40,778 bases of DNA from sequence record PZ179885.1, one strand, 5' to 3'. Source of the stretch: a phage. Positions 11,854 to 40,722 of the stretch are shown here, in pieces; position 1 is the first letter of the stretch, and each line of letters starts with the position of its first letter. The notes under the pieces were generated by a model. The model was not told the DNA's origin. It saw only the letters and a list, made by a program, of their open reading frames with translations, and made no database searches. A program made the position numbers and the translations under genes.

Positions 11854-12552
11854 ATGGCTAAAGAGCAACTGAAGACTTTCACCACTCCGGTAGCTGGTAT
11901 CGTTGAGCCTTACGCATGGCTGAACAAAGCAGACACTAAGTTTAACGAGCGTGGTGAGCATAAGGTTAACCTGACATTCGACCTGAGCAGCCCGAAGGTC
12001 CGTAAGATGATTGATGTCTTACAGAAGATTCACGACGATGCGTATGCGAAAGCACTTGCAGACCACGAGAAGAACCCACCTCAGGTTCAGCGTGGCAAGA
12101 AGCCTATTGAACCACGAGAAGGCGACATGCCGTGGATTGAGAATGGTGACGGTACTGTTACCATGAAGTTTAAATGCTTCGCGTCTTACCTGAAGGATGG
12201 TAAGTCAGAGCCTATCGTATTACGGTTCTACGACACCGATGCTAAGTTAATCCGTGACGTCCCGAATATTGGCGCTGGCTCCAAACTGAAGGTCAAGTTT
12301 AAAGTCCTTCCGTTCAAGTGGAACGCTGCGACTGGTGCAAGCGTTAAGCTCCAGCTTGAGTCCTGCCTTCTGGTAGAACTGAAGGAGTGGAAAGGCGATG
12401 GTGCTGGTGGCGATGGTGGCTGGGGTGATGATGAAGACCTCGGTACTGGCTACAAAGCGTCAACCGATGGTGACTTCGGGTCTGACGACTTCAGTGACGA
12501 TGGTTGTGATGGCGATGACGACTCCAACTCTGGTGGCGATTACGACTTCTAA
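11854..12552 (+). CDS. 2.5: single-stranded DNA-binding protein (gene 2.5)
   Basis: 232 aa, the same length as T7 gp2.5; acidic C-terminus ending in DF. Confidence 0.93.
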   Translation: MAKEQLKTFTTPVAGIVEPYAWLNKADTKFNERGEHKVNLTFDLSSPKVRKMIDVLQKIHDDAYAKALADHEKNPPQVQRGKKPIEPREGDMPWIENGDGTVTMKFKCFASYLKDGKSEPIVLRFYDTDAKLIRDVPNIGAGSKLKVKFKVLPFKWNAATGASVKLQLESCLLVELKEWKGDGAGGDGGWGDDEDLGTGYKASTDGDFGSDDFSDDGCDGDDDSNSGGDYDF

Positions 12553-13004
12553 TGGCCCAATGGTCTGCAAAACGGGGGCACTCTGTGGGTGCCTACCGCT
12601 CTGGACTTGAAGCCAAGAACCAGCAGTGGCTGGAACAGAACGGCGTCAAAGCGGAGTACGAAAGCCATTATATCAACTATGTGATTCCGGCTTCCGACCA
12701 CAAGTACACACCAGACTTTATCCTTCCTAACGGTATCATCGTGGAGACCAAAGGTATCTTCGATAGTGATGACCGTAAGAAGCACCTTCTGGTACGAGAA
12801 CAGCACCCAGAGTTAGACATTCGGTTCGTGTTCTCAAGTTCCCGCTCCAAGTTATACAAAGGGTCTCCGACCACGTATGGCGCATGGTGCGAAAAGAACG
12901 GCTATAAGTATGCCGATAAGTTCATCCCGGTTGAGTGGCTTCGAGAGGCGACTGTACGTCTGCCTTCAGGTATCCTCATCCCCAAGAAGAAAGGAGTTAA
13001 GTGA
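12552..13004 (+). CDS. 3: endonuclease I, Holliday-junction resolvase (gene 3)
   Basis: 150 aa; YTPDFILPNGIIVETKG and DDRKKHLLVREQHPELDIRFVFSSSRSKLYKGSPTTYG match T7 gp3. Confidence 0.96.
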   Translation: MAQWSAKRGHSVGAYRSGLEAKNQQWLEQNGVKAEYESHYINYVIPASDHKYTPDFILPNGIIVETKGIFDSDDRKKHLLVREQHPELDIRFVFSSSRSKLYKGSPTTYGAWCEKNGYKYADKFIPVEWLREATVRLPSGILIPKKKGVK

Positions 13005-13474
13005 TGACTCAGAAATATAGACTTAAAGTTAGCATCTACGGGTGGCCTACAGGTACTATCGTCACAAAATGTGCGAAAGACCCTGTACCAGTGCCTGGAC
13101 TTGTTCTGGTGGAATCCACTGAGCGTGGCCTCTACAAGCACGGAGCAGCGGGGCATAACAGTCAGCCTGACGGAATGTGGGGGGCATGGGTTTCAAATGA
13201 ATATCTTGAGGAAATTGTAGAGGATAAACCTCAAGTCCTGCCAGCCTCAAGCGTCCCTCCTGTCACCGTTAAACGTGAAGTCCTGACCATCGACAAGATT
13301 GGTGTAGGCCAGACGTTCATCGTCCACGGGAAGCCTGAAGAAGTTTACGTGAAGATTAGCAACTCACACGTCTTCAACCATAAGCGTCTCCAGATGCACA
13401 CCACGGACGCACAGCGCTTCACCCAGCACCTGAATCTAGTGGTCGTAGAATTGGTGGTGTACAATGGTAAGTAA
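13004..13474 (+). CDS. hypothetical protein (156 aa) between genes 3 and 3.5
   Basis: AAGGAG 8 nt upstream; ATG overlaps the gene 3 stop by one base; no homology recognised. Confidence 0.6.
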   Translation: MTQKYRLKVSIYGWPTGTIVTKCAKDPVPVPGLVLVESTERGLYKHGAAGHNSQPDGMWGAWVSNEYLEEIVEDKPQVLPASSVPPVTVKREVLTIDKIGVGQTFIVHGKPEEVYVKISNSHVFNHKRLQMHTTDAQRFTQHLNLVVVELVVYNGK

Positions 13475-14227: not shown

Positions 14228-15931
<1,704 letters not shown>

Positions 15932-16133: not shown

Positions 16134-16170
16134 AGTGGCCTTTATGATTAGACTAAACGGAGGATTAACC

Positions 16171-16572
16171 ATGTTTGATTGCATTGAGTGGACCGGGTGC
16201 CGAGACCGTTTCGGATACGGTATGCGAAAGGTCAACGGGAAAGTCCGTAGACTACATCTGATAGCCTTCGAGGAGGCGAACGGTCCGATACCTGAAGGAA
16301 TGGTCGTGCGACATAAGTGTGACAACCCATCGTGTTACAACCCAGCACACTTAGAGCTGGGGACACGGGCTGACAACAATCGTGATAGAGACGTAAGAGG
16401 TCGAACCGCTAAGGGAGTGAGGCATGGGAGTTCTAGACTTACACCTGAAATAATACAAGAGGCCAAGGTGCTCTACGCAGGAGGTGGATGGACTCACCGC
16501 TCCCTAGGTGAGAAGTATGGAGTTGGACACCGCACGATAGCTAGAGCAATTGGAGGAGAAACATGGACTTAA
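16171..16572 (+). CDS. HNH homing endonuclease
   Basis: CIEWTGC...GYG...HLIAFEEANGPIPEGMVVRHKCDNPSCYNPAHLELGTRADNNRD; paralogue of 22218..22634. Confidence 0.85.
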   Translation: MFDCIEWTGCRDRFGYGMRKVNGKVRRLHLIAFEEANGPIPEGMVVRHKCDNPSCYNPAHLELGTRADNNRDRDVRGRTAKGVRHGSSRLTPEIIQEAKVLYAGGGWTHRSLGEKYGVGHRTIARAIGGETWT

Positions 16573-18731
16573 GTAACGTATACGGGTCTGACATCGAGAC
16601 CAACGGTCTCCTTGACACCGTGTCCCAGTTCCATTGTGGGGTCCTGATTAATGCCGAGTCTAATGAGACCATTAAGTATGGGGTAGCTCCGATGGTCGGT
16701 ATCGTCGGTGGCTTCAAAGAGTATGTACAGAAGGTGGAAGAGATTGTCGCATCACCTGATGGTATGCTGATATTCCACAACGGTATCAACTATGACGTCC
16801 CGGCTATTGACAAGCTAAAGCGTCTGTACTTTGGGAAACGCTTTAACTTCCCGAAACACAAGATGATTGATACCTTGGTGCTGGGACGCTTGATGTATCC
16901 AAACATTAAGTTCTCAGACATGGGCGCAGTGAAAGCTGGTCGTCTGCCACCTAAGATGATGGGACGCCAGTCTCTTGAGGCTTGGGGCTATCGTCTCGGT
17001 GAGATGAAAGGTGAGTACAAACACGATTACGTTGCCAAGTGCAAGGCTGAAGGTATCGAATATAAGGCTGGGGACGAATGGTTGTTCCCATCTCAGGAGA
17101 TGCTAGACTATAACGTTCAAGACGTTGTGGTCACACTGGCGTTGTTCAAGAAGTTCCTGACTGACAAGTATTACTTCCAGTCTGAACAGTTCGCTTTCGA
17201 CCAGATTTATGCGTTGCGTCTGGAACATGATGCTGCGTGGACCTGTGCGAAGATGGAGCGTAACGGCTATCCGATGAACACCGAGATGGTCGAAGGCTTA
17301 TATCGTGAACTCACCGTCAAACGTGCAGAGTTGTTGGACAAGCTGCGTTCGACTTTCGGTAGCTGGTATGCACCAAAGGGAGGCAAGGAGTTCTTCAAGC
17401 ACCCACGGACAGGCAAGGACCTTCCGAAGTATCCGCGAGTCGTGTATCCTAAGGTCGGGTCAGTATTCAAGAAGCCGAAGAACAAAGCTCAACGCTTAGG
17501 TCTGGAGCCTTGCGAGTTCGACTCACGAGACACGATGGAAGGAGCACCGTTCACGCCAATCACTTACGTTGAGTTTAATCCGGGAAGCGGAGACCACTTA
17601 GCGAAAGTCTTGATGGAGCGTGGTTGGGAGCCTGTGGACTTCACTGACACTGGGAAACCTGTAGTCGATGACGAGACGTTAGAACACGTTAAGCTACCAG
17701 ACGCAGAGGCTCAGGCTTGCGTAGAGCTGGTCCGTGAGTATCTGGTAGTCCAGAAGCGCAGCGGTCAGGCGGCTGAAGGTAAGAACGCATGGTTGAAACT
17801 TGTAGGTCCAGACGGACGTATGCACGGTTCAATCAACCCATGCGGTGCAGTAACAGGACGTGCGACTCATAGTTCACCAAACATGGCTCAGGTCCCTGCT
17901 AACGGTGCTCCGTATGGTGAGATTTGCCGTGGTGCTTTCGGTGCAGCTTGGAACAAGACGGATGGTAAGCCAGACCCTTGGATTCAAGTGGGTGTGGATG
18001 CTTCAGGTCTTGAGCTTCGTTGTCTGGGGAACCGAGCAGCTCCGTTTGATGGTGGTGCCTATGCGAAGACTGTGGTAGAAGGTGACATCCACTGGGCCAA
18101 CGCAGTCAACGCTGGGTTAGCACCTAACGTCCCACGCGATAAGTCGAACCACGACCATGATGCTTTCCGTAACAACGCTAAGACGTTCATCTATGCGTTC
18201 CTGTATGGTGCAGGGGCCGCTAAGATTGGACTGATAGTCGGCGGTGGTAAGAAGGAAGGTTCAGCTCTCATGAAGAAATTCATTGAGGGTACACCAGCCA
18301 TCAAGGACCTCAGGGAAGCTGTGAGTAATACGTTAATCTCAGACTCTAAGTGGGTAGATGGTGAGAACATCGTTAAGTGGAAACGCCGTTGGCTGCGTGG
18401 ACTTGACGGTCGCCGTATCCACATCCGGTCGCCACACTCAGCACTGAACGCCTTACTTCAAGGTGATGGTGCGGTAGTCTGTAAAACGTGGTTCACTTGG
18501 CTTGAGAGGAACCTAGAAGCTAAAGGCTACGTGCATGGCTGGGATGGCGACTTTGCGATTATGGCTTTTGTCCATGACGAAGTTCAGGTTGCCGCAAGGA
18601 CCATGGAAATAGCTGAGGACATCGTTAGGGTGGCGCAATCAACAATGAGAGAGGTTGGAGAGTTCTACCAGTTCAAGTGTGTGCTTGACACCGAGGGTAA
18701 GATAGGACCTACGTGGCGCGAATGTCACTAA
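16563..18731 (+). CDS. 5: DNA polymerase (gene 5)
   Basis: 722 aa; collinear with T7 gp5 (FHCGV, FHNGINYDVPA, EAWGYRLGEMKGEYK, DYNVQDVVVT, NPCGAVTGRATH, LELRCL, NAKTFIYAFLYGAG, HDE). Confidence 0.98.
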   Translation: MDLSNVYGSDIETNGLLDTVSQFHCGVLINAESNETIKYGVAPMVGIVGGFKEYVQKVEEIVASPDGMLIFHNGINYDVPAIDKLKRLYFGKRFNFPKHKMIDTLVLGRLMYPNIKFSDMGAVKAGRLPPKMMGRQSLEAWGYRLGEMKGEYKHDYVAKCKAEGIEYKAGDEWLFPSQEMLDYNVQDVVVTLALFKKFLTDKYYFQSEQFAFDQIYALRLEHDAAWTCAKMERNGYPMNTEMVEGLYRELTVKRAELLDKLRSTFGSWYAPKGGKEFFKHPRTGKDLPKYPRVVYPKVGSVFKKPKNKAQRLGLEPCEFDSRDTMEGAPFTPITYVEFNPGSGDHLAKVLMERGWEPVDFTDTGKPVVDDETLEHVKLPDAEAQACVELVREYLVVQKRSGQAAEGKNAWLKLVGPDGRMHGSINPCGAVTGRATHSSPNMAQVPANGAPYGEICRGAFGAAWNKTDGKPDPWIQVGVDASGLELRCLGNRAAPFDGGAYAKTVVEGDIHWANAVNAGLAPNVPRDKSNHDHDAFRNNAKTFIYAFLYGAGAAKIGLIVGGGKKEGSALMKKFIEGTPAIKDLREAVSNTLISDSKWVDGENIVKWKRRWLRGLDGRRIHIRSPHSALNALLQGDGAVVCKTWFTWLERNLEAKGYVHGWDGDFAIMAFVHDEVQVAARTMEIAEDIVRVAQSTMREVGEFYQFKCVLDTEGKIGPTWRECH

Positions 18732-27338: not shown

Positions 27339-29696
27339 ATGCCACTAATTACTCAATCAATCAAGAACCTTAAAGGTGGCATTAGCCAGCAGCCAGACAT
27401 ACTGAGGTTCTCAGACCAAGGCGAGGAGCAAGTTAACTGCTGGTCATCCGAGAGTGATGGCCTCCAGAAGCGTCCACCTACAGTCTTCAAGCGACGTCTT
27501 AACATCGACGTTGGGAGCAACCCTAAGTTCCACCTGATTAACCGTGACGAGCATGAGCAGTATTACATCGTGTTCAATGGGTCCAACATTCAGGTAGTTG
27601 ACTTGAGCGGTAATCAATACTCAGTTTCCGGTGATGTAGACTACGTTAAGTCCTCCAACCCACGAGATGACATCCGTGTCGTTACCGTGGCAGACTATAC
27701 GTTCGTCGTTAACCGTAAGGTTGTCGTTAAAGGTGGGAGCGAGAAGGCACACTCTGGTTATAATCGTAAAGCTCGTGCTTTAATTAACCTGCGTGGTGGA
27801 CAGTATGGTCGCACCCTTAAGGTAGGAATCAACGGAGGAGTTAAGGTTGAGCATAAGTTGCCAGCAGGTAATGATGCCGAGAATGACCCTCCTAAGGTGG
27901 ATGCTCAGACCATCGGTGCAGCTCTGAGAGACCTTCTTGTTGCTGCTTACCCTACCTTCACGTTCGACCTTGGGTCTGGCTTCCTGTTAATCACTGCCCC
28001 TTCAGGGACTGACATTAACTCAGTGGAGACGGAGGATGGCTACGCTAACCAGCTAATAAGCCCAGTCCTAGACACTGTGCAGACAATCTCTAAACTACCT
28101 CTTGCCGCTCCTAATGGGTATATCATTAAGATTCAAGGTGAAACAAACAGTAGCGCCGATGAATACTACGTGATGTATGACTCCAACACTAAGACGTGGA
28201 AGGAGACAGTGGAGCCGGGAGTTGTCACTGGGTTCGACAACACCACAATGCCACATGCTCTGGTAAGACAGTCTGACGGCTCCTTTGAGTTCAAGACTCT
28301 GGATTGGTCCAAGCGTGGTGCTGGTAACGATGACACAAACCCTATGCCTAGCTTCGTGGATGCTGCGATTAACGATGTGTTCTTCTACAGGAACAGGCTA
28401 GGGTTCTTGTCGGGTGAGAACGTAATCATGAGCCGTTCAGCAAGCTACTTTGCGTTCTTCCCTAAGAGTGTGGCGACACTGAGTGATGATGATCCTATTG
28501 ACGTAGCTGTAAGTCACCCTCGAATCTCAATCCTTAAGTATGCCGTTCCGTTTAGCGAGCAGCTACTACTTTGGTCGGATGAGGTTCAGTTCGTGATGAC
28601 AAGCTCTGGGGTACTTACCTCGAAGTCTATCCAGCTTGATGTAGGCTCAGAGTTTGCCTTAGGCGATAATGCCCGACCGTTCGCTGTAGGACGCTCAGTC
28701 TTCTTCTCAGCTCCTCGTGGGTCATTCACCAGCATTAAGCGATACTTCGCTGTAGCAGATGTGTCTGACGTGAAGGATGCCGATGATACCACTGGCCACG
28801 TACTGTCCTACATCCCTAACGGGGTGTTTGATATTCAAGGTACAGGTACTGAGAACTACATCTGCGTCAACTCTACAGGTGCATACAACCGAATCTACAT
28901 CTACAAGTTCTTGTTTAAGGACGGAGTACAGCTTCAAGCCTCTTGGTCACACTGGGAGTTCCCTAAAGATGATAAGATTCTGGCGTCTGCTTCTATTGGC
29001 TCTACCATGTTCATCGTTCGTCAGCATCAAGGAGGGGTAGACATTGAGCACCTTAAGTTCATCAAGGAGGCAACTGACTTCCCGTCAGAGCCATATAGAC
29101 TACACATTGACTCCAAGGTGTCTATGGTAATTCCAATTGGCTCATATAATGCTGACACCTATAAGACTACGGTTGACATTGGTGCTGCTTATGGTGGCAA
29201 CGCTCCGTCTCCCGGTCGGTACTATCTGATTGACAGTCAGGGTGCTTATGTGGACCTTGGGGACTTGACCAGTATCTCTACTGTGATTACCCTCAACGGC
29301 GATTGGTCAGGACGTACAGTGTTCATCGGACGGCCCTATCTGATGTCCTACAAGTTCTCACGGTTCCTGATTAAGATTGAAGATGATAGGGGCACTCAGT
29401 CTGAAGACACTGGTCGTCTACAGCTTCGTCGGGCTTGGGTCAACTACAAGGACACTGGCGCTCTGAGACTCATTGTCAGAAACGGTGAGCGGGAGTTCGT
29501 GAACACCTTTAACGGGTACACCCTTGGTCAGCAAACCATCGGGACTACAAACATCGGTGACGGGCAGTATCGCTTCGCTATGAATGGTAACGCATTAACC
29601 ACGAGTCTAACCTTAGAGTCCGACTATCCTACCCCAGTGGCCATCGTTGGGTGCGGCTGGGAGGCGTCATACGCTAAGAAAGCTCGTTCCGTCTAA
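27339..29696 (+). CDS. 12: tail tubular protein B (gene 12)
   Basis: 785 aa; SQSIKNLKGGISQQPDILR, INRDEHEQYY, NDVFFYRNRLGFLSGEN, DDDPIDVAVS, LQLRRAWVNY and IVGCGWE match T7 gp12. Confidence 0.97.
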   Translation: MPLITQSIKNLKGGISQQPDILRFSDQGEEQVNCWSSESDGLQKRPPTVFKRRLNIDVGSNPKFHLINRDEHEQYYIVFNGSNIQVVDLSGNQYSVSGDVDYVKSSNPRDDIRVVTVADYTFVVNRKVVVKGGSEKAHSGYNRKARALINLRGGQYGRTLKVGINGGVKVEHKLPAGNDAENDPPKVDAQTIGAALRDLLVAAYPTFTFDLGSGFLLITAPSGTDINSVETEDGYANQLISPVLDTVQTISKLPLAAPNGYIIKIQGETNSSADEYYVMYDSNTKTWKETVEPGVVTGFDNTTMPHALVRQSDGSFEFKTLDWSKRGAGNDDTNPMPSFVDAAINDVFFYRNRLGFLSGENVIMSRSASYFAFFPKSVATLSDDDPIDVAVSHPRISILKYAVPFSEQLLLWSDEVQFVMTSSGVLTSKSIQLDVGSEFALGDNARPFAVGRSVFFSAPRGSFTSIKRYFAVADVSDVKDADDTTGHVLSYIPNGVFDIQGTGTENYICVNSTGAYNRIYIYKFLFKDGVQLQASWSHWEFPKDDKILASASIGSTMFIVRQHQGGVDIEHLKFIKEATDFPSEPYRLHIDSKVSMVIPIGSYNADTYKTTVDIGAAYGGNAPSPGRYYLIDSQGAYVDLGDLTSISTVITLNGDWSGRTVFIGRPYLMSYKFSRFLIKIEDDRGTQSEDTGRLQLRRAWVNYKDTGALRLIVRNGEREFVNTFNGYTLGQQTIGTTNIGDGQYRFAMNGNALTTSLTLESDYPTPVAIVGCGWEASYAKKARSV

Positions 29697-29720: not shown

Positions 29721-29743
29721 CCTTAACTATCACTATAGGGACT
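29721..29743 (+). promoter_or_regulatory. phage RNAP promoter (phi13-like), +1 G at 29738
   Basis: CCTTAACTATCACTATAGGGACT. Confidence 0.8.
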
Positions 29744-29782: not shown

Positions 29783-30241
29783 ATGTATATTCGCAAGGCT
29801 ACGGAACCGGATGTCCACTACTTTCTGTGGCATCTTTCAGCAGATGATATTAATGAGTGCAAAGCAAACTACGGGTCAACCGTTGGTCTCTCTGAAAGAC
29901 TGCTTAAGCACCTATCTCCGTCATCTGTGGTTTTAACGAACGGTGTAGGCGAAGTGTTTGCCTATGGTGGAAACCAAGGGGATAACGTATGGTTCTTGAC
30001 TTCCGGTCTGGTCAACAAGCTGAGACCTAAAGAGAAGCGAGAGTTCATAAAGCGTATCTCTGAGTACAGGGACTTAATGTTAGACCAATACGGGACCATC
30101 TGGAACTACGTGTGGTCAGGCAATAAGTCTCACATTAAATTCTTGAAGTTGCTTGGCGCTAAATTCCATGATGATTGGACTATCAGCCCGGTAACTGGTG
30201 AGCGTTTTCAATTATTCACTATCTCTAAGGAGGACGTATGA
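29783..30241 (+). CDS. 13: gene 13-like internal virion/assembly protein
   Basis: 152 aa from the ATG with GGAG upstream; positional assignment between genes 12 and 14. Confidence 0.6.
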   Translation: MYIRKATEPDVHYFLWHLSADDINECKANYGSTVGLSERLLKHLSPSSVVLTNGVGEVFAYGGNQGDNVWFLTSGLVNKLRPKEKREFIKRISEYRDLMLDQYGTIWNYVWSGNKSHIKFLKLLGAKFHDDWTISPVTGERFQLFTISKEDV

Positions 30242-30639
30242 CGAAGGTCTGTTTAACTTGTGGTCTGGAGAAACCAATCACTGAGTTTCACAAACAGGCC
30301 GCCAAGAAAGACCCGAACAGGCGTAAGCCTCATTGTAGAAGCTGCTGGTCCAAGATACGTAAGGATAGAACCCCAGAGCACAACAGGCGATATAACCTGA
30401 AGAGATGCTATGGAATAACACCTGAGGAGTATGATAAAATGCTTCGTGAGCAAGGTGGGACATGTGCTATTTGTCATGGTACAGAGTCTGTAGGAAGACT
30501 AGCGGTAGACCATTGCCATTCAACTGGAAAGGTTAGAGGGCTGCTATGTACCAACTGCAATCAAGCTATAGGCAAGCTGAAGGATGACGCTCAGTTGCTT
30601 AGAAACGCTATCAACTATCTGGAGGTGAACCGTGTGTGA
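30238..30639 (+). CDS. endonuclease VII-like (His-Me finger) nuclease
   Basis: 133 aa; AICHGTES...LAVDHCHSTGKVRGLLCTNCNQAIG fits the T4 endonuclease VII family; overlaps neighbouring genes at both ends. Confidence 0.8.
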   Translation: MTKVCLTCGLEKPITEFHKQAAKKDPNRRKPHCRSCWSKIRKDRTPEHNRRYNLKRCYGITPEEYDKMLREQGGTCAICHGTESVGRLAVDHCHSTGKVRGLLCTNCNQAIGKLKDDAQLLRNAINYLEVNRV

Positions 30640-31219
30640 ACCAGTATCCATCGGTCTAGGAGTAATGGCTGTAGCAGGGGCCACTATGTCCGCATCCCAA
30701 CAGGCCAAGGCTGAAGGAGCAGCAATTGACGCTCAGAACCGACAGGCTCAGGAAATGGTTAAGCAGATGAACTACTCTGACGCCAACCTGAAGATGCAGG
30801 AGCGAGACCTGAAGGAGCAGCAGATGGCTGAACTGACAGAGACCACGCTCAACGGTATACGAAATCAGGGTATGGTCAGAGCTGCGGTAGCTGAGTCCGG
30901 TCTGGAAGGTAACTCTATGGACAGGATTGAACGTCAGGTCGAAGGAGATACAGTCAAGGAGCGAGCAGGGATTACCGAAAGTTACAACCGCGACTATGCG
31001 GCTATCTTCGGGAACCGTATCGCCAACATTGAGAACACCAAGTCTGCTATCCGTGGTCAAGGTAAAATCATCAAGACCAGTCCACTGGCCCATGCACTTA
31101 ATGTTGCTAACGCCGGGATGCAAGGTTACGCCGCTGGTAAGTCAATGTCTGGGACTTCAGGCTCTGGTGGTGCTGCACCAATTAGTGCTGCTAAAGGCAC
31201 ACCTACAGGTCATAGCTAA
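30632..31219 (+). CDS. 14: internal virion protein B (gene 14), GTG start
   Basis: 195 aa; begins MC like T7 gp14; GLEGNSMDRIERQ resembles T7 MLEGSSMDRIKR; GGAGG 6 nt upstream. Confidence 0.8.
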   Translation: MCEPVSIGLGVMAVAGATMSASQQAKAEGAAIDAQNRQAQEMVKQMNYSDANLKMQERDLKEQQMAELTETTLNGIRNQGMVRAAVAESGLEGNSMDRIERQVEGDTVKERAGITESYNRDYAAIFGNRIANIENTKSAIRGQGKIIKTSPLAHALNVANAGMQGYAAGKSMSGTSGSGGAAPISAAKGTPTGHS

Positions 31220-36500: not shown

Positions 36501-37405
36501 GTAAGCGTAAGTTCGATGACCGCTGGCTGAAGACCGCTGGTATATCTGACGAGCAGTGGAAGGGCATTAAGTCCCTAATCCGTGAGTCAGTGACTCGTGG
36601 TCCAGACGGGAAGTATACCATCAAGGATAAGAAGGCGTTCAGTCAGGACCCAAGGGCTATGGACCTGTGGCGTATGGGTGACACCATCGCTGACGAAACG
36701 TTACTCCGGCCCCACAAGCTGTCAAACATGGACGCCAAGGCTTATGGTCCTCTCGCTAAGACTGTCCTTCAGTTTAAGAACTTCGTCATCAAGTCCATCA
36801 ATGGACGTACCATGCGAACCTTCTATAACGCCACGAAGAACAACCGAGCGATGGACGCTGCTCTGTCCACTGTGATCTCTATGGGTCTTGCTGGTATCTA
36901 CTACATGGCTCAGGCGCATGTCAAGGCTTACGCTATGCAGGATGGTCGAGACCGTGACTACCTCAAGCAAGCTCTGGACCCGACGATGATTGGATATGCG
37001 GCTCTATCACGTAGTTCACACCTTGGTGGACCACTTGGGGTAGCTAACATTTTGGGTGGCATAGCTGGGTATGAGGACACTAAGATGCTCCGCTCGTCTA
37101 TCCTACCTCGTTCACCTACAGAGAAGCCTGAACGTGCTATCACATATGGTGCGGCTACAAGTGACCCTGTGATGAATGTTGTTGGTAACTTCCTGGAGCA
37201 GGTTCCAGCTTTCGGATACGCTGCTAACGTTGGTGCTTCGGCTTATAACTTGGCTGGCTACCTAAAGGCGGATACTCGTGTCAATGAGCGGGACTACATG
37301 ACCGGGATGTATAACACGTTCCGTGAACTGGTTCCGAACGACCCAATTACCCAGAAGTTGCTGCTTGGAACGTTTGAGGAGCAAGGTATCCACATCAAGG
37401 ACTAA
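33518..37405 (+). CDS. 16: internal virion protein D (gene 16)
   Basis: 1295 aa from the ATG after AAGGAG; from about residue 200 collinear with T7 gp16 (TWFGFGAA, TGGSPQNL, ARETARN, DLVRSPTGMQSGASGK, NGDIAIMAGTGKTTKE, LLNGTTNYLLDA, MDLWRMGD, ALSRSS, ELVPNDP); the N-terminal domain differs. Confidence 0.95.
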   Translation: MATRGIRNNNPGNIRVSKDQWEGMTGDDGAFVTFDSPESGVRALGKNLLSYGRRGYDSIEKIINRWAPPNENDTKAYIDSVVAATGIPATQSLDLSNPDTLSALAQAISFHETGSRYDPEVYQKGVARALNGISPKTPPVSANVFDALTEGLKAKPKVALGENLPTAAGLNIEGQAPEAPNESFGEMFYKSTGDTMQEREDRSTWFGFGAATEAEVKNSMVGVAIRAGQTEDSLDVIGDVFNPTRWNNHKWTREELDQIRNAGVLPQYYGVITGGSPQNLTELINLALENQKLDQEKAKAGTGAQLAAGVIGAGVDPLTYVPIAGQVGKGGKLVNKMFTVAAQSGALAGVSEMARTSVAGGDAHVAEAILGGALFGGGMTAIADGLGRALGRNTNEFAGPATRLEARETARNVDGQDLSRLPIQEGEQTFSHQGVKFADVPNEPGSVRLEDGSILIGENPLNPKTRQVFDEVIEPERAAAGVNLGGLTEIGLKLLRSENPEIRGVAADLVRSPTGMQSGASGKIGTTASDVFERLRAVDHRFYNDIDDAVTEALKDPYFQTAFWRDSGAFRQDIYQRVSMAIEDGSGNLKAELTPGELKVYDLLKNQFDAKREMMENPAMFGRPDAQSIFPGSRFKGTYVPHVYSNQMKELYIKELGSPEALQEAIKKSWLTSYASRPEVKKRVDEALLEADPTLTPEGLAAAVDKYANDKAYGISHTEQFERSSVMEENINGLVGLENNSFLEARNLFDSDMSIVLPNGQTFSVNNLREWDMDKIVPAYNRRVNGDIAIMAGTGKTTKEMKDLVETMMNKAGDDGKLKGEVSTLRDTLKILTGRARRDGADDAAFATVMRTMTDLSFFAKNAYMGVQNLTEIGGMLARGNVRAMLHGVPIFRDLAFRNKKVGASEIKDLHNVIFGKELDDSIRPSKQDVIDRLRSYSSLSRGTATALGTAKYYTGELAVRSPFTKVLNGTTNYLLDAGRQGFLSDIVEHSLTGSKRKFDDRWLKTAGISDEQWKGIKSLIRESVTRGPDGKYTIKDKKAFSQDPRAMDLWRMGDTIADETLLRPHKLSNMDAKAYGPLAKTVLQFKNFVIKSINGRTMRTFYNATKNNRAMDAALSTVISMGLAGIYYMAQAHVKAYAMQDGRDRDYLKQALDPTMIGYAALSRSSHLGGPLGVANILGGIAGYEDTKMLRSSILPRSPTEKPERAITYGAATSDPVMNVVGNFLEQVPAFGYAANVGASAYNLAGYLKADTRVNERDYMTGMYNTFRELVPNDPITQKLLLGTFEEQGIHIKD

Positions 37406-40284: not shown

Positions 40285-40722
40285 ATGCTCGAATTTTTTA
40301 AGAGAGCGGCTCCGTGGTTACTTGCAGCAGTGATGTTTGCTGGTGGCTACCACACCGCTAACAATAAGTGGGAGGCTAAGGTCAATGAAGAATACATCTC
40401 GAATCTTAAGGCATCGGAAGATACAAGGCTTGCTGTCCAAGCTGAAGTCAACAAAGTGTCCAAACGGTTTCAGGACGAAATGTCCTCGCTGGAAGGCAGC
40501 ACTGATAGGATTATTGCTGACCTTAACCGCGATAACAAGCGGCTGCGCGTCAAAGTCAACACCTCAGGTCTCACCGAGTCAGATGTCAGTCGATGCTTCC
40601 CTAATGGTAGAGTCGAACTACACCCAGAAACTTCTAAAAGTCTTATCCGAATAACTCAGGAGGCAGACCTTAAGGAGAAGGCGCTTCAGGACACAATAAG
40701 GAGGCTCCAAGGTGTTAAGTGA
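40285..40722 (+). CDS. 18.5: Rz-like spanin, inner-membrane component (gene 18.5)
   Basis: 145 aa; MLEFF..., N-terminal transmembrane segment, SLEGSTDRIIADLNRDNKRLRVKV and ALQDTIRRLQ match T7 gp18.5. Confidence 0.92.
   Translation: MLEFFKRAAPWLLAAVMFAGGYHTANNKWEAKVNEEYISNLKASEDTRLAVQAEVNKVSKRFQDEMSSLEGSTDRIIADLNRDNKRLRVKVNTSGLTESDVSRCFPNGRVELHPETSKSLIRITQEADLKEKALQDTIRRLQGVK
40337..40654 (+). CDS. 18.7: Rz1-like outer-membrane lipoprotein spanin embedded in the +1 frame of Rz (start uncertain)
   Basis: Signal-like KAALIGLLLTLTAITSG followed by Cys and a Pro-rich STPQVSPSQ; the ORF-track start at 40337 is probably too far upstream. Confidence 0.55.
   Translation: MLVATTPLTISGRLRSMKNTSRILRHRKIQGLLSKLKSTKCPNGFRTKCPRWKAALIGLLLTLTAITSGCASKSTPQVSPSQMSVDASLMVESNYTQKLLKVLSE

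Follow-up and report, generated by a model that had tools for sequence, protein, structure and literature searches.

Gene 13.5 and its neighbours

The window, by which we mean the whole 40,778-nucleotide stretch analysed here, is a complete and permuted Kayfunavirus genome (that of a K1F-like relative of T7) which begins with the terminase ORF and has Kayfunavirus phages as its closest records. Between genes 13 and 14 it carries an ATG-initiated ORF (30238..30639, +) encoding a 133 aa protein, referred to here as gene 13.5 and gp13.5, which we assign to the DHHRN endonucleases carrying the Endo VII motif on the basis of Pfam and PHROG matches and 96% identity to the gp13.5 of phage EcoDS1. Upstream lies gene 13, encoding internal virion protein A (29784..30241, +; Pfam Phage_T7_Gp13 PF11090, E=6e-42), which we start at the ATG at 29784 following the annotation of relatives and not at the 29705 of the mechanically called ORF, which crosses the phi13 promoter. 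Downstream is gene 14, encoding internal virion protein B from a GTG start (30632..31219, +; Pfam T7_gp14 PF24072, E=4e-46, residues 1–181). Elsewhere in the window, the ORF at 12552..13004 encodes a T7-type endonuclease I (gene 3; PF05367 Phage_endo_I, E=2.8e-81).

The start codon of gene 13.5 (30238–30240) overlaps the TGA stop of gene 13 (30239–30241) in an ATGA at 30238–30241, and the GTG of gene 14 (30632–30634) is found within gene 13.5, 8 nt from the 3' end of this ORF, which terminates with a TGA at 30637–30639. These overlaps, pointed out in the initial annotation, can be read directly from the sequence, and its statement that the junction is uninterrupted in T7 agrees with the T7 coordinates, where only 4 bp separate the end of gene 13 at 27723 from the start of gene 14 at 27728. 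Gene 13.5 had also been described as inserted, and comparison with relatives resolved a precise insert: a 394-bp segment (30241..30634, +) is missing from insert-less relatives in the alignment, and the distance between conserved anchors is 423 nt in the window compared with 29 nt in 23 insert-less loci. The insert-less junction reads AAGGAGGACGTATG followed immediately by TGTGAACC (in a longer form, ...TCTAAGGAGGACGTATG followed by TGTGAACC...), the ATG here being the start of gene 14, and that of the window reads ...AAGGAGGACGTATG-ACGAAG...GGAGGTGAACCGTG-TGTGAACC. As ATG and GTG flank the insert, its boundaries are ambiguous by 3 nt.

Both neighbouring genes have been altered by the insertion, which accounts for the GTG start of gene 14 and a gp13 four residues shorter than usual. 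A Shine-Dalgarno sequence (AAGGAGG, 30227..30233, +) is positioned 4 nt before the ATG at 30238, and comparison with the insert-less loci shows that the ribosome-binding site (RBS) and ATG which serve gene 14 in those phages would drive gene 13.5 in the window. Gene 14 has in turn acquired a new translation start within the 3' end of gene 13.5, where GGAGGT is followed after 5 nt by GTG (30621..30634, +); this region is kept in all eight loci with a gene 13.5 of the same type (hereafter type A), with ATG replacing GTG in EcoDS1 and TH20. The insert also introduces a TGA in the gene 13 frame, and gp13 therefore ends with SKEDV in the window rather than with the SKEDVCVNP of insert-less relatives, the CVNP being lost.

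Two types of 5' junction are found among the type-A loci: that of the window, GGAGGACGTATGACG, agrees with insert-less phages as far as the ATG, and EcoDS1 has GGAGTAAAGATGACC. The insert-less sequence is intact right to the ATG in the window and 101136BS1, whereas the other type-A phages have GGAGTAAAGATGACC, or GGAGTAGCAATGACC in the case of VIPECLMC06. At the 3' junction we note a 7-nt direct repeat, GTGAACC, at 30625–30631 and 30636–30642. The 3' ends of genes 13 and 13.5 resemble each other over 12 nt, which we considered as a possible footprint of a duplication and rejected as probably due to chance, given that only 10 of the 12 positions match, the two copies are in different reading frames, and the copy in gene 13.5 encodes the AIxYL motif conserved in the family.

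The phage RNA-polymerase promoter phi13 (29723..29741, +) is an exact match to TTAACTATCACTATAGGGA, an element that also carries the phi13 annotation in EcoDS1. It is one of nine phage-promoter matches in the window, where none would be expected, and the only one upstream of gene 13.5, with the next match at 37403; gene 13.5 would thus be co-transcribed late with genes 13–16. A scan for sigma-70 promoters and terminators around gene 13.5 found nothing above shuffled expectation, and no convincing terminator after the ORF. Neither a group I intron nor any other RNA family was found in an Rfam scan of the whole window, and gene 13.5 is therefore free-standing and not intron-borne.

Domains, fold and family of gp13.5

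The His-Me finger signature and N-terminal cysteine cluster from which the initial annotation had identified a nuclease are both present in gp13.5. DHCH occupies residues 91–94 and is followed by STGKVRGLLCTNCNQAIG, giving an overall motif of VDHCHSTGKVRGLLCTNCNQAIG, in which the Endo VII motif residues are D91, H92, H94, R100 and N108. Two CxxC pairs surround the DHCH motif (C76-x2-C79 and C104-x2-C107) and a further CxxC...CxxC arrangement is found near the N-terminus (C5, C8, C33 and C36), while C57 varies among orthologues. The domain search suggested in the initial annotation gave a match to Pfam PF02945 Endonuclease_7 with E=8.4e-28 and 96.5 bits (the curated gathering threshold is 23.6 bits), which places residues 54–129 on positions 4–81 of the 82-position profile, and a second match was obtained with PHROG 2633 'endonuclease VII' (E=7.5e-45). 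The strength of these matches excludes a chance ORF.

The Endonuclease_7 domain (residues 54–129; 30397..30624, +) is also supported by homologue conservation, an AlphaFold model and Foldseek, and by homology has C76, C79, C104 and C107 as structural zinc ligands and D91, H92, H94, R100 and N108 as catalytic residues. These five catalytic residues are invariant in 56 homologues together with C33, C76, C79 and C107, and C5, C8, C36 and C104 are each at least 90% conserved. The N-terminal CxxC...CxxC module (30250..30345, +), recognised from homologue conservation and alignment to residues 76–110 of Hpy99I and to F-CphI, is predicted to be a zinc ribbon and probably contributes to DNA binding.

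An AlphaFold2 model of gp13.5 built on the 56 homologues has a mean pLDDT of 92.5, and the His-Me finger fold on which the initial annotation depended is predicted in it. The putative beta-beta-alpha-Me core spans residues 89–113 (strands 89–92 and 99–103, helix 105–113) and would give gp13.5 the fold characteristic of the DHHRN family; the N-terminal module is predicted to be small and beta-rich, with strands at 2–4, 11–13, 17–19 and 29–33. Foldseek matched the model to PDB entries 3fc3, 2qnf, 1e7l and 1en7, the best match being Hpy99I (E=3.9e-6) followed by T4 endonuclease VII (4.6e-3 to 2.1e-2). Hpy99I was also the best sequence match among solved structures, with residues 3–129 of gp13.5 aligning to its residues 76–196 (E=8e-8).

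The DHHRN family was defined by Fang et al. 2018 (PMC6083498), who showed F-CphI of cyanophage S-PM2 to be a homing endonuclease using the Endo VII motif. They distinguished a 'resolvase clade', whose members resemble T4 gp49 over their whole length and have an N-terminal motif, from an 'endonuclease clade' with a C-terminal motif, in which the podoviruses all have a T7 endonuclease I, and their Table S1 lists the gp13.5 proteins of both EcoDS1 (flagged 'C' for a C-terminal motif) and phiYeO3-12. The eponymous residues are D40/H41/H43/R54/N62 in the T4 protein and D101/H102/H104/R110/N118 in F-CphI, where mutagenesis has found C84, D101, H102, R110 and N118 to be essential (PMC6083498). The latter align to C76, D91, H92, R100 and N108 of gp13.5, all five of which are invariant in the 56 homologues. 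The window protein has the conserved D/H/H/R/N residues of the family and, on either side of the DH.H motif, its zinc ligands CX2-4C and CX2C (C76-x2-C79 and C104-x2-C107). It fits the 'endonuclease clade' both on the position of the motif (54–129 of 133 residues) and on its whole-length similarity to F-CphI (44% identity over residues 1–129 by BLASTP), and the phage has its own T7 endonuclease I at 12552..13004.

This placement bears on the alternative that gp13.5 is a branched-DNA or Holliday-junction resolvase like T4 endonuclease VII which debranches replicated DNA before packaging. Such a role would be consistent with the Pfam family and catalytic core that gp13.5 and T4 gp49 have in common, and with late expression alongside the virion genes. 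Against this, the phage already has a T7-type resolvase of its own in gene 3, which makes a second unlikely; the alignment with T4 endonuclease VII is confined to the core (residues 62–117 of gp13.5 with 9–71 of gp49, at an rmsd of 3.0–3.6 A over about 86 columns in Foldseek) and the motif is C-terminal, where a gp49-type resolvase should have whole-length similarity and an N-terminal motif (PMC6083498). Such a resolvase should also be conserved across relatives having no other, whereas about 94% of close relatives are without gene 13.5. We regard a resolvase function as very improbable. An HK97-style HNH terminase cofactor was also rejected, as most relatives are without the gene and it does not adjoin the terminase genes.

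Distribution, ancestry and selection

A 3-kb query around gene 13.5 retrieved 264 phage records, eight of which, representing seven phages, have a gene of the window type and always at the same junction; about 6% of close relatives carry it, and it was found in none of the 24 relatives retrieved from IMG/VR with gp14, which provided an unbiased sample of its absence. The orthologue in EcoDS1 (ACF15821 / YP_002003777) is also 133 aa long, 96% identical, located at the same junction and annotated 'endonuclease VII'. The same gene is present in 101136BS1, Hafnia yong1 (Hafnia phage Ca), TH20, PDP351P4, PDP21P1 and VIPECLMC06, and the orthologous proteins are 88–99% identical.

The ancestry of gene 13.5 is decoupled from that of its flanks, which, with its sporadic occurrence at a fixed site among close relatives, is the pattern expected of a homing gene. 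EcoDS1, TH20 and PDP351P4 are only 55–75% identical to the window in gene 13 and 92–99% identical in gene 13.5. PDP21P1 has the opposite arrangement: it matches the window at 99–100% identity throughout genes 12 and 13, in gene 15 and at the 3' end of gene 14, and is only 80–93% identical in a tract from ~30100 to 31000 centred on gene 13.5, a stretch that looks like a conversion tract when the sequences are compared. Gene 13.5 can also serve to flag a recombination hot spot within the block of virion genes. It should be noted that T7-like phages recombine freely, and mosaicism alone is therefore no proof of endonuclease-driven transfer.

Differences between the alleles extend into gene 14. 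The first ~30 nt of this gene in the window constitute a largely synonymous allele, CCAGTATCCATCGGTYTAGG, with an AGT-to-TCC serine codon switch relative to the insert-less allele, and allele comparison places the variable tract in codons 4–10 (30641..30660, +), which read CCAGTATCCATCGGTCTAGG in the window and CCCGTAAGTATCGGCATGGG in most insert-less loci. The CCAGTATCCATCGGTCTAGG allele is found in 7/8 type-A loci compared with 2/23 insert-less loci (Fisher p=1e-4, a statistic which ignores relatedness), and we treat the tract as a candidate location for a site of recognition or immunity. Its use as a strict immunity marker is weakened by the two insert-less loci, L010 and L019, which share the type-A allele, and the tract is therefore not a simple marker of presence or absence.

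All eight type-A ORFs are intact, and comparison of gene 13.5 with seven orthologues gave dN/dS ratios of 0.06–0.23 in those cases where they could be measured (dS reached about 1.3), indicating that gp13.5 is under purifying selection. The ratios, which cover the whole ORF, and the intact and conserved catalytic and zinc-binding residues are difficult to reconcile with an inactive or decaying remnant kept only for the gene 14 translation start in its 3' end. A remnant might persist in so far as the RBS and start of gene 14 lie inside the gene 13.5 ORF and a clean deletion must restore both, and decay has occurred at one related locus (L023, described below); on the other hand, the expression of gene 14 needs only the last ~15 nt, and we give this explanation hardly any credence.

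Strong purifying selection and long persistence at one locus speak for a further alternative, in which gp13.5 is a nuclease kept for the benefit of the phage and not for its own spread, through competitor exclusion, host DNA degradation or anti-defence, perhaps as a sequence-specific cutter like Hpy99I. This restriction enzyme is the best solved-structure relative of gp13.5 over nearly the whole protein, and an attack on host DNA was a speculation of the Hafnia phage Ca authors, who list gene 13.5 merely as an extra gene (PMC8861465). Hpy99I is paired with a methyltransferase according to the literature, whereas gene 13.5 has genes 13 and 14 as its neighbours and neither a methyltransferase nor another partner gene nearby; the sporadic distribution of the gene (about 6% of close relatives) and the existence of a decayed remnant also count against a benefit to the phage, which we consider rather improbable as the reason for its maintenance. 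We note that this alternative and homing differ mainly in the beneficiary, because excluding competitors by cutting insert-less relatives would mechanistically be the same act. We also observe that the type-A copies differ by a dS of about 1 and yet occupy the same site under strong purifying selection, a point against homing that fits a phage-beneficial gene as well.

Divergent members of the family occur sporadically at the same junction in Przondovirus, Teetrevirus and further Kayfunavirus types. The Yersinia phage phiYeO3-12 gp13.5 (NP_072072) is 49% identical to that of the window, and genes of its type are present in 15 of 107 T3-like (Teetrevirus) records and absent from T3. In Klebsiella Przondovirus, a P509-type gene is found in 34/383 records and genes of a distinct type, P19-966, also occur, while Kayfunavirus has two more types, B (pO91) and C (L029), and a related copy in the early region of another phage, Baskent_phicoli_1. 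The divergent types share 35–53% identity with the window gp13.5 and one another (35–48% in pairwise comparisons of the window, VIPECLMC06, pO91, P509, P19-966 and Baskent early-region copies). L023 preserves no more than a decayed remnant, in which a deletion has joined the 3' half of a type-B gene to a truncated gene 13.

Free-standing homing endonuclease genes would be expected to have such a history, with occurrence in several lineages and instances of decay. These observations raise the possibility, which we rate at somewhat under an even chance, that the T7-group (Studiervirinae) 13/14 junction is a long-lived shared landing site, where at least five or six divergent DHHRN lineages go through rounds of invasion, decay and re-invasion across three or more genera, and where synonymous changes to the first ~10 gene 14 codons would be the footprint of an arms race over the target site. 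If true, T7-like phages could provide an easy genetic model for DHHRN homing. The literature searched contained no account of such a multi-lineage, multi-genus pattern, and the presence of several divergent lineages at one junction across three genera is a modestly new angle, the only one offered here.

Function of gp13.5 and comparison with known systems

We conclude that gene 13.5 is probably a free-standing, F-CphI-like DHHRN homing endonuclease gene located at the Kayfunavirus 13/14 junction, and would place the probability of this at roughly 0.75. The initial annotation had offered a homing endonuclease and a branched-DNA resolvase as alternatives, and it is the first which is favoured by the occurrence of the gene in 8/264 records at one junction, the decoupled flanks, the similarity to F-CphI and the C-terminal motif; the second is disfavoured by the endonuclease I, the core-only match to the T4 protein and the many relatives without the gene.

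As a homing endonuclease, gp13.5 would be produced late from phi13 transcripts and translated from the former RBS and ATG of gene 14, as sequence comparison indicates, to give what homology and the predicted fold suggest is a zinc-stabilised beta-beta-alpha-Me nuclease with a D91/H92/H94/R100/N108 active site and an N-terminal zinc ribbon. In mixed infections it may cut gene-less relatives at or near the 13/14 junction, probably within the first ~30 nt of gene 14, and repair off a gene-bearing genome would then transfer to the recipient a copy of the gene with short tracts from either side of it, leading to over-transmission of the gene. The last codons of the insert bring with them a replacement RBS and GTG for gene 14, as can be read in the window, and because of this the cost of invasion to the phage would be low.

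The gene itself is already known, having been annotated in the phiYeO3-12 and EcoDS1 records and catalogued in the DHHRN family paper, and our search of the literature found no experimental work on any gp13.5. The gene carries little weight as a discovery and is of more use for annotation, where 'putative free-standing homing endonuclease' would be preferable to 'recombination endonuclease VII'. The T7-like gene 13.5 variants would also be convenient and tractable for the study of DHHRN homing.

Amongst the known orthologues, EcoDS1 differs from the window at the 5' junction, where its gene 13 ends with KE and stops 2 nt before the ATG, in contrast to the KEDV and overlapping stop of the window; its gene 13 is only 55–73% identical to that of the window, and its gene 14 begins with ATG and not GTG. 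The phiYeO3-12, P509, P19-966, pO91 and L029 genes resemble gene 13.5 in family, junction and size and have just as sporadic a distribution in their respective genera, but differ in the details of the junction, having for example a TAATG overlap, GGAGGATAGCCATATG retained, or ATT replacing the gene 14 start.

The type II restriction endonuclease Hpy99I (PDB 3fc3/3gox) has both zinc sites and the beta-beta-alpha-Me core in common with gp13.5, covering nearly all of the phage protein, and differs in having an extra ~75 residues at the N-terminus. T4 endonuclease VII (gp49; PDB 1en7, 1e7l, 2qnc and 2qnf) shares the catalytic core and zinc site, but gp49 has the motif at its N-terminus and gp13.5 at its C-terminus, and the remainder of the 157 aa T4 protein, which includes the dimerisation region, has no counterpart in gp13.5; the role of resolvase belongs to gp49 in T4 and to endonuclease I in the window phage.

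A further parallel is with F-CphI (ORF177 of S-PM2), the founding member of the DHHRN family, which is like gp13.5 in having an N-terminal CxxC...CxxC, in being free-standing and in its small size (142 compared with 133 aa). The activity of F-CphI has been demonstrated experimentally, whereas the nuclease activity of gp13.5 is putative and based on homology and the predicted fold. F-CphI adjoins psbA and has as its target the intron-less psbA gene in another cyanophage (PMC6083498), and the target of gp13.5 must be a different one.

Gene 13/14 junctions

The 3′ junction of the gene 13.5 insert in the window includes a 7-nt direct repeat, GTGAACC (30625–30631 and 30636–30642), and reads GGAG-GTGAACC-GTGT-GTGAACC-AG with the second copy of the repeat lying at the start of gene 14. 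The repeat may have been left by microhomology at the original insertion, or it may have arisen by chance.

At the same junction in the Kayfunavirus relatives carrying the divergent type B or C Endo VII-motif genes, the gene 14 start-codon position is occupied by ATT (AAGGAGGATTAGAAAATTTGCGAA), as seen in pO91 (locus L004, 2110–2150) and in loci L023 and L029 (both at ~2480–2510), and in all three an in-frame TAG lies two codons 5′ of the ATT. The pO91 record annotates the gp14 start as an ATG downstream of the ATT. Gene 14 in the type B and C carriers would either use a rare ATT start or have gp14 produced from the downstream ATG. In L023 (IMGVR_UViG_2974604219_000001), a deletion has also fused gene 13 to the 3′ half of a type B endonuclease gene (~2150–2500), such that gene 13 is cut off at ...DQYGTIWN* and is followed by VCAICRTSG... 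of the nuclease, with ~43 gp13 codons lost along with the nuclease's N-terminal half. We read this locus as what is left of a homing-endonuclease gene that has decayed; it may instead be an assembly artefact.

Endonuclease and other genes at further sites

A 141-aa Endo VII-motif gene sharing 47% identity with the window protein was found in the Kayfunavirus Baskent_phicoli_1 (locus L037, 1210–1635), and as this copy sits in the early region, with ocr on one side and the RNA polymerase gene on the other, members of this family are present at more than one site in Kayfunavirus.

Within the window itself, a 145-aa HNH ORF (16135..16572, + strand; Pfam HNH_3, E=2.7e-17; PHROG HNH endonucleases, E=2e-29) is flanked by the primase/helicase (14231..15931) and DNA polymerase (16563..18731) genes, and looks like a candidate second free-standing homing endonuclease unrelated to gene 13.5. 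A 157-aa ORF with a GTG start (13001..13474, + strand) is flanked by gene 3 (endonuclease I) and gene 3.5 (lysozyme/amidase); the Pfam search gave no match for it, and its sole match was to PHROG 16385 (unknown function; E=2e-93). T7 is not known to have a gene at this position.

Comparison with Hafnia phage Ca

Hafnia phage Ca has an HNH gene between its lysis and terminase genes, and a 397-bp deletion of this gene segregates with plaque size (PMC8861465). No HNH insert of this type is present at the lysis/terminase position in the window, where the terminase ORF, at the permuted start, comes immediately after the Rz-like ORF (40285..40722). Gene 13.5 is shared by the two phages (PMC8861465).
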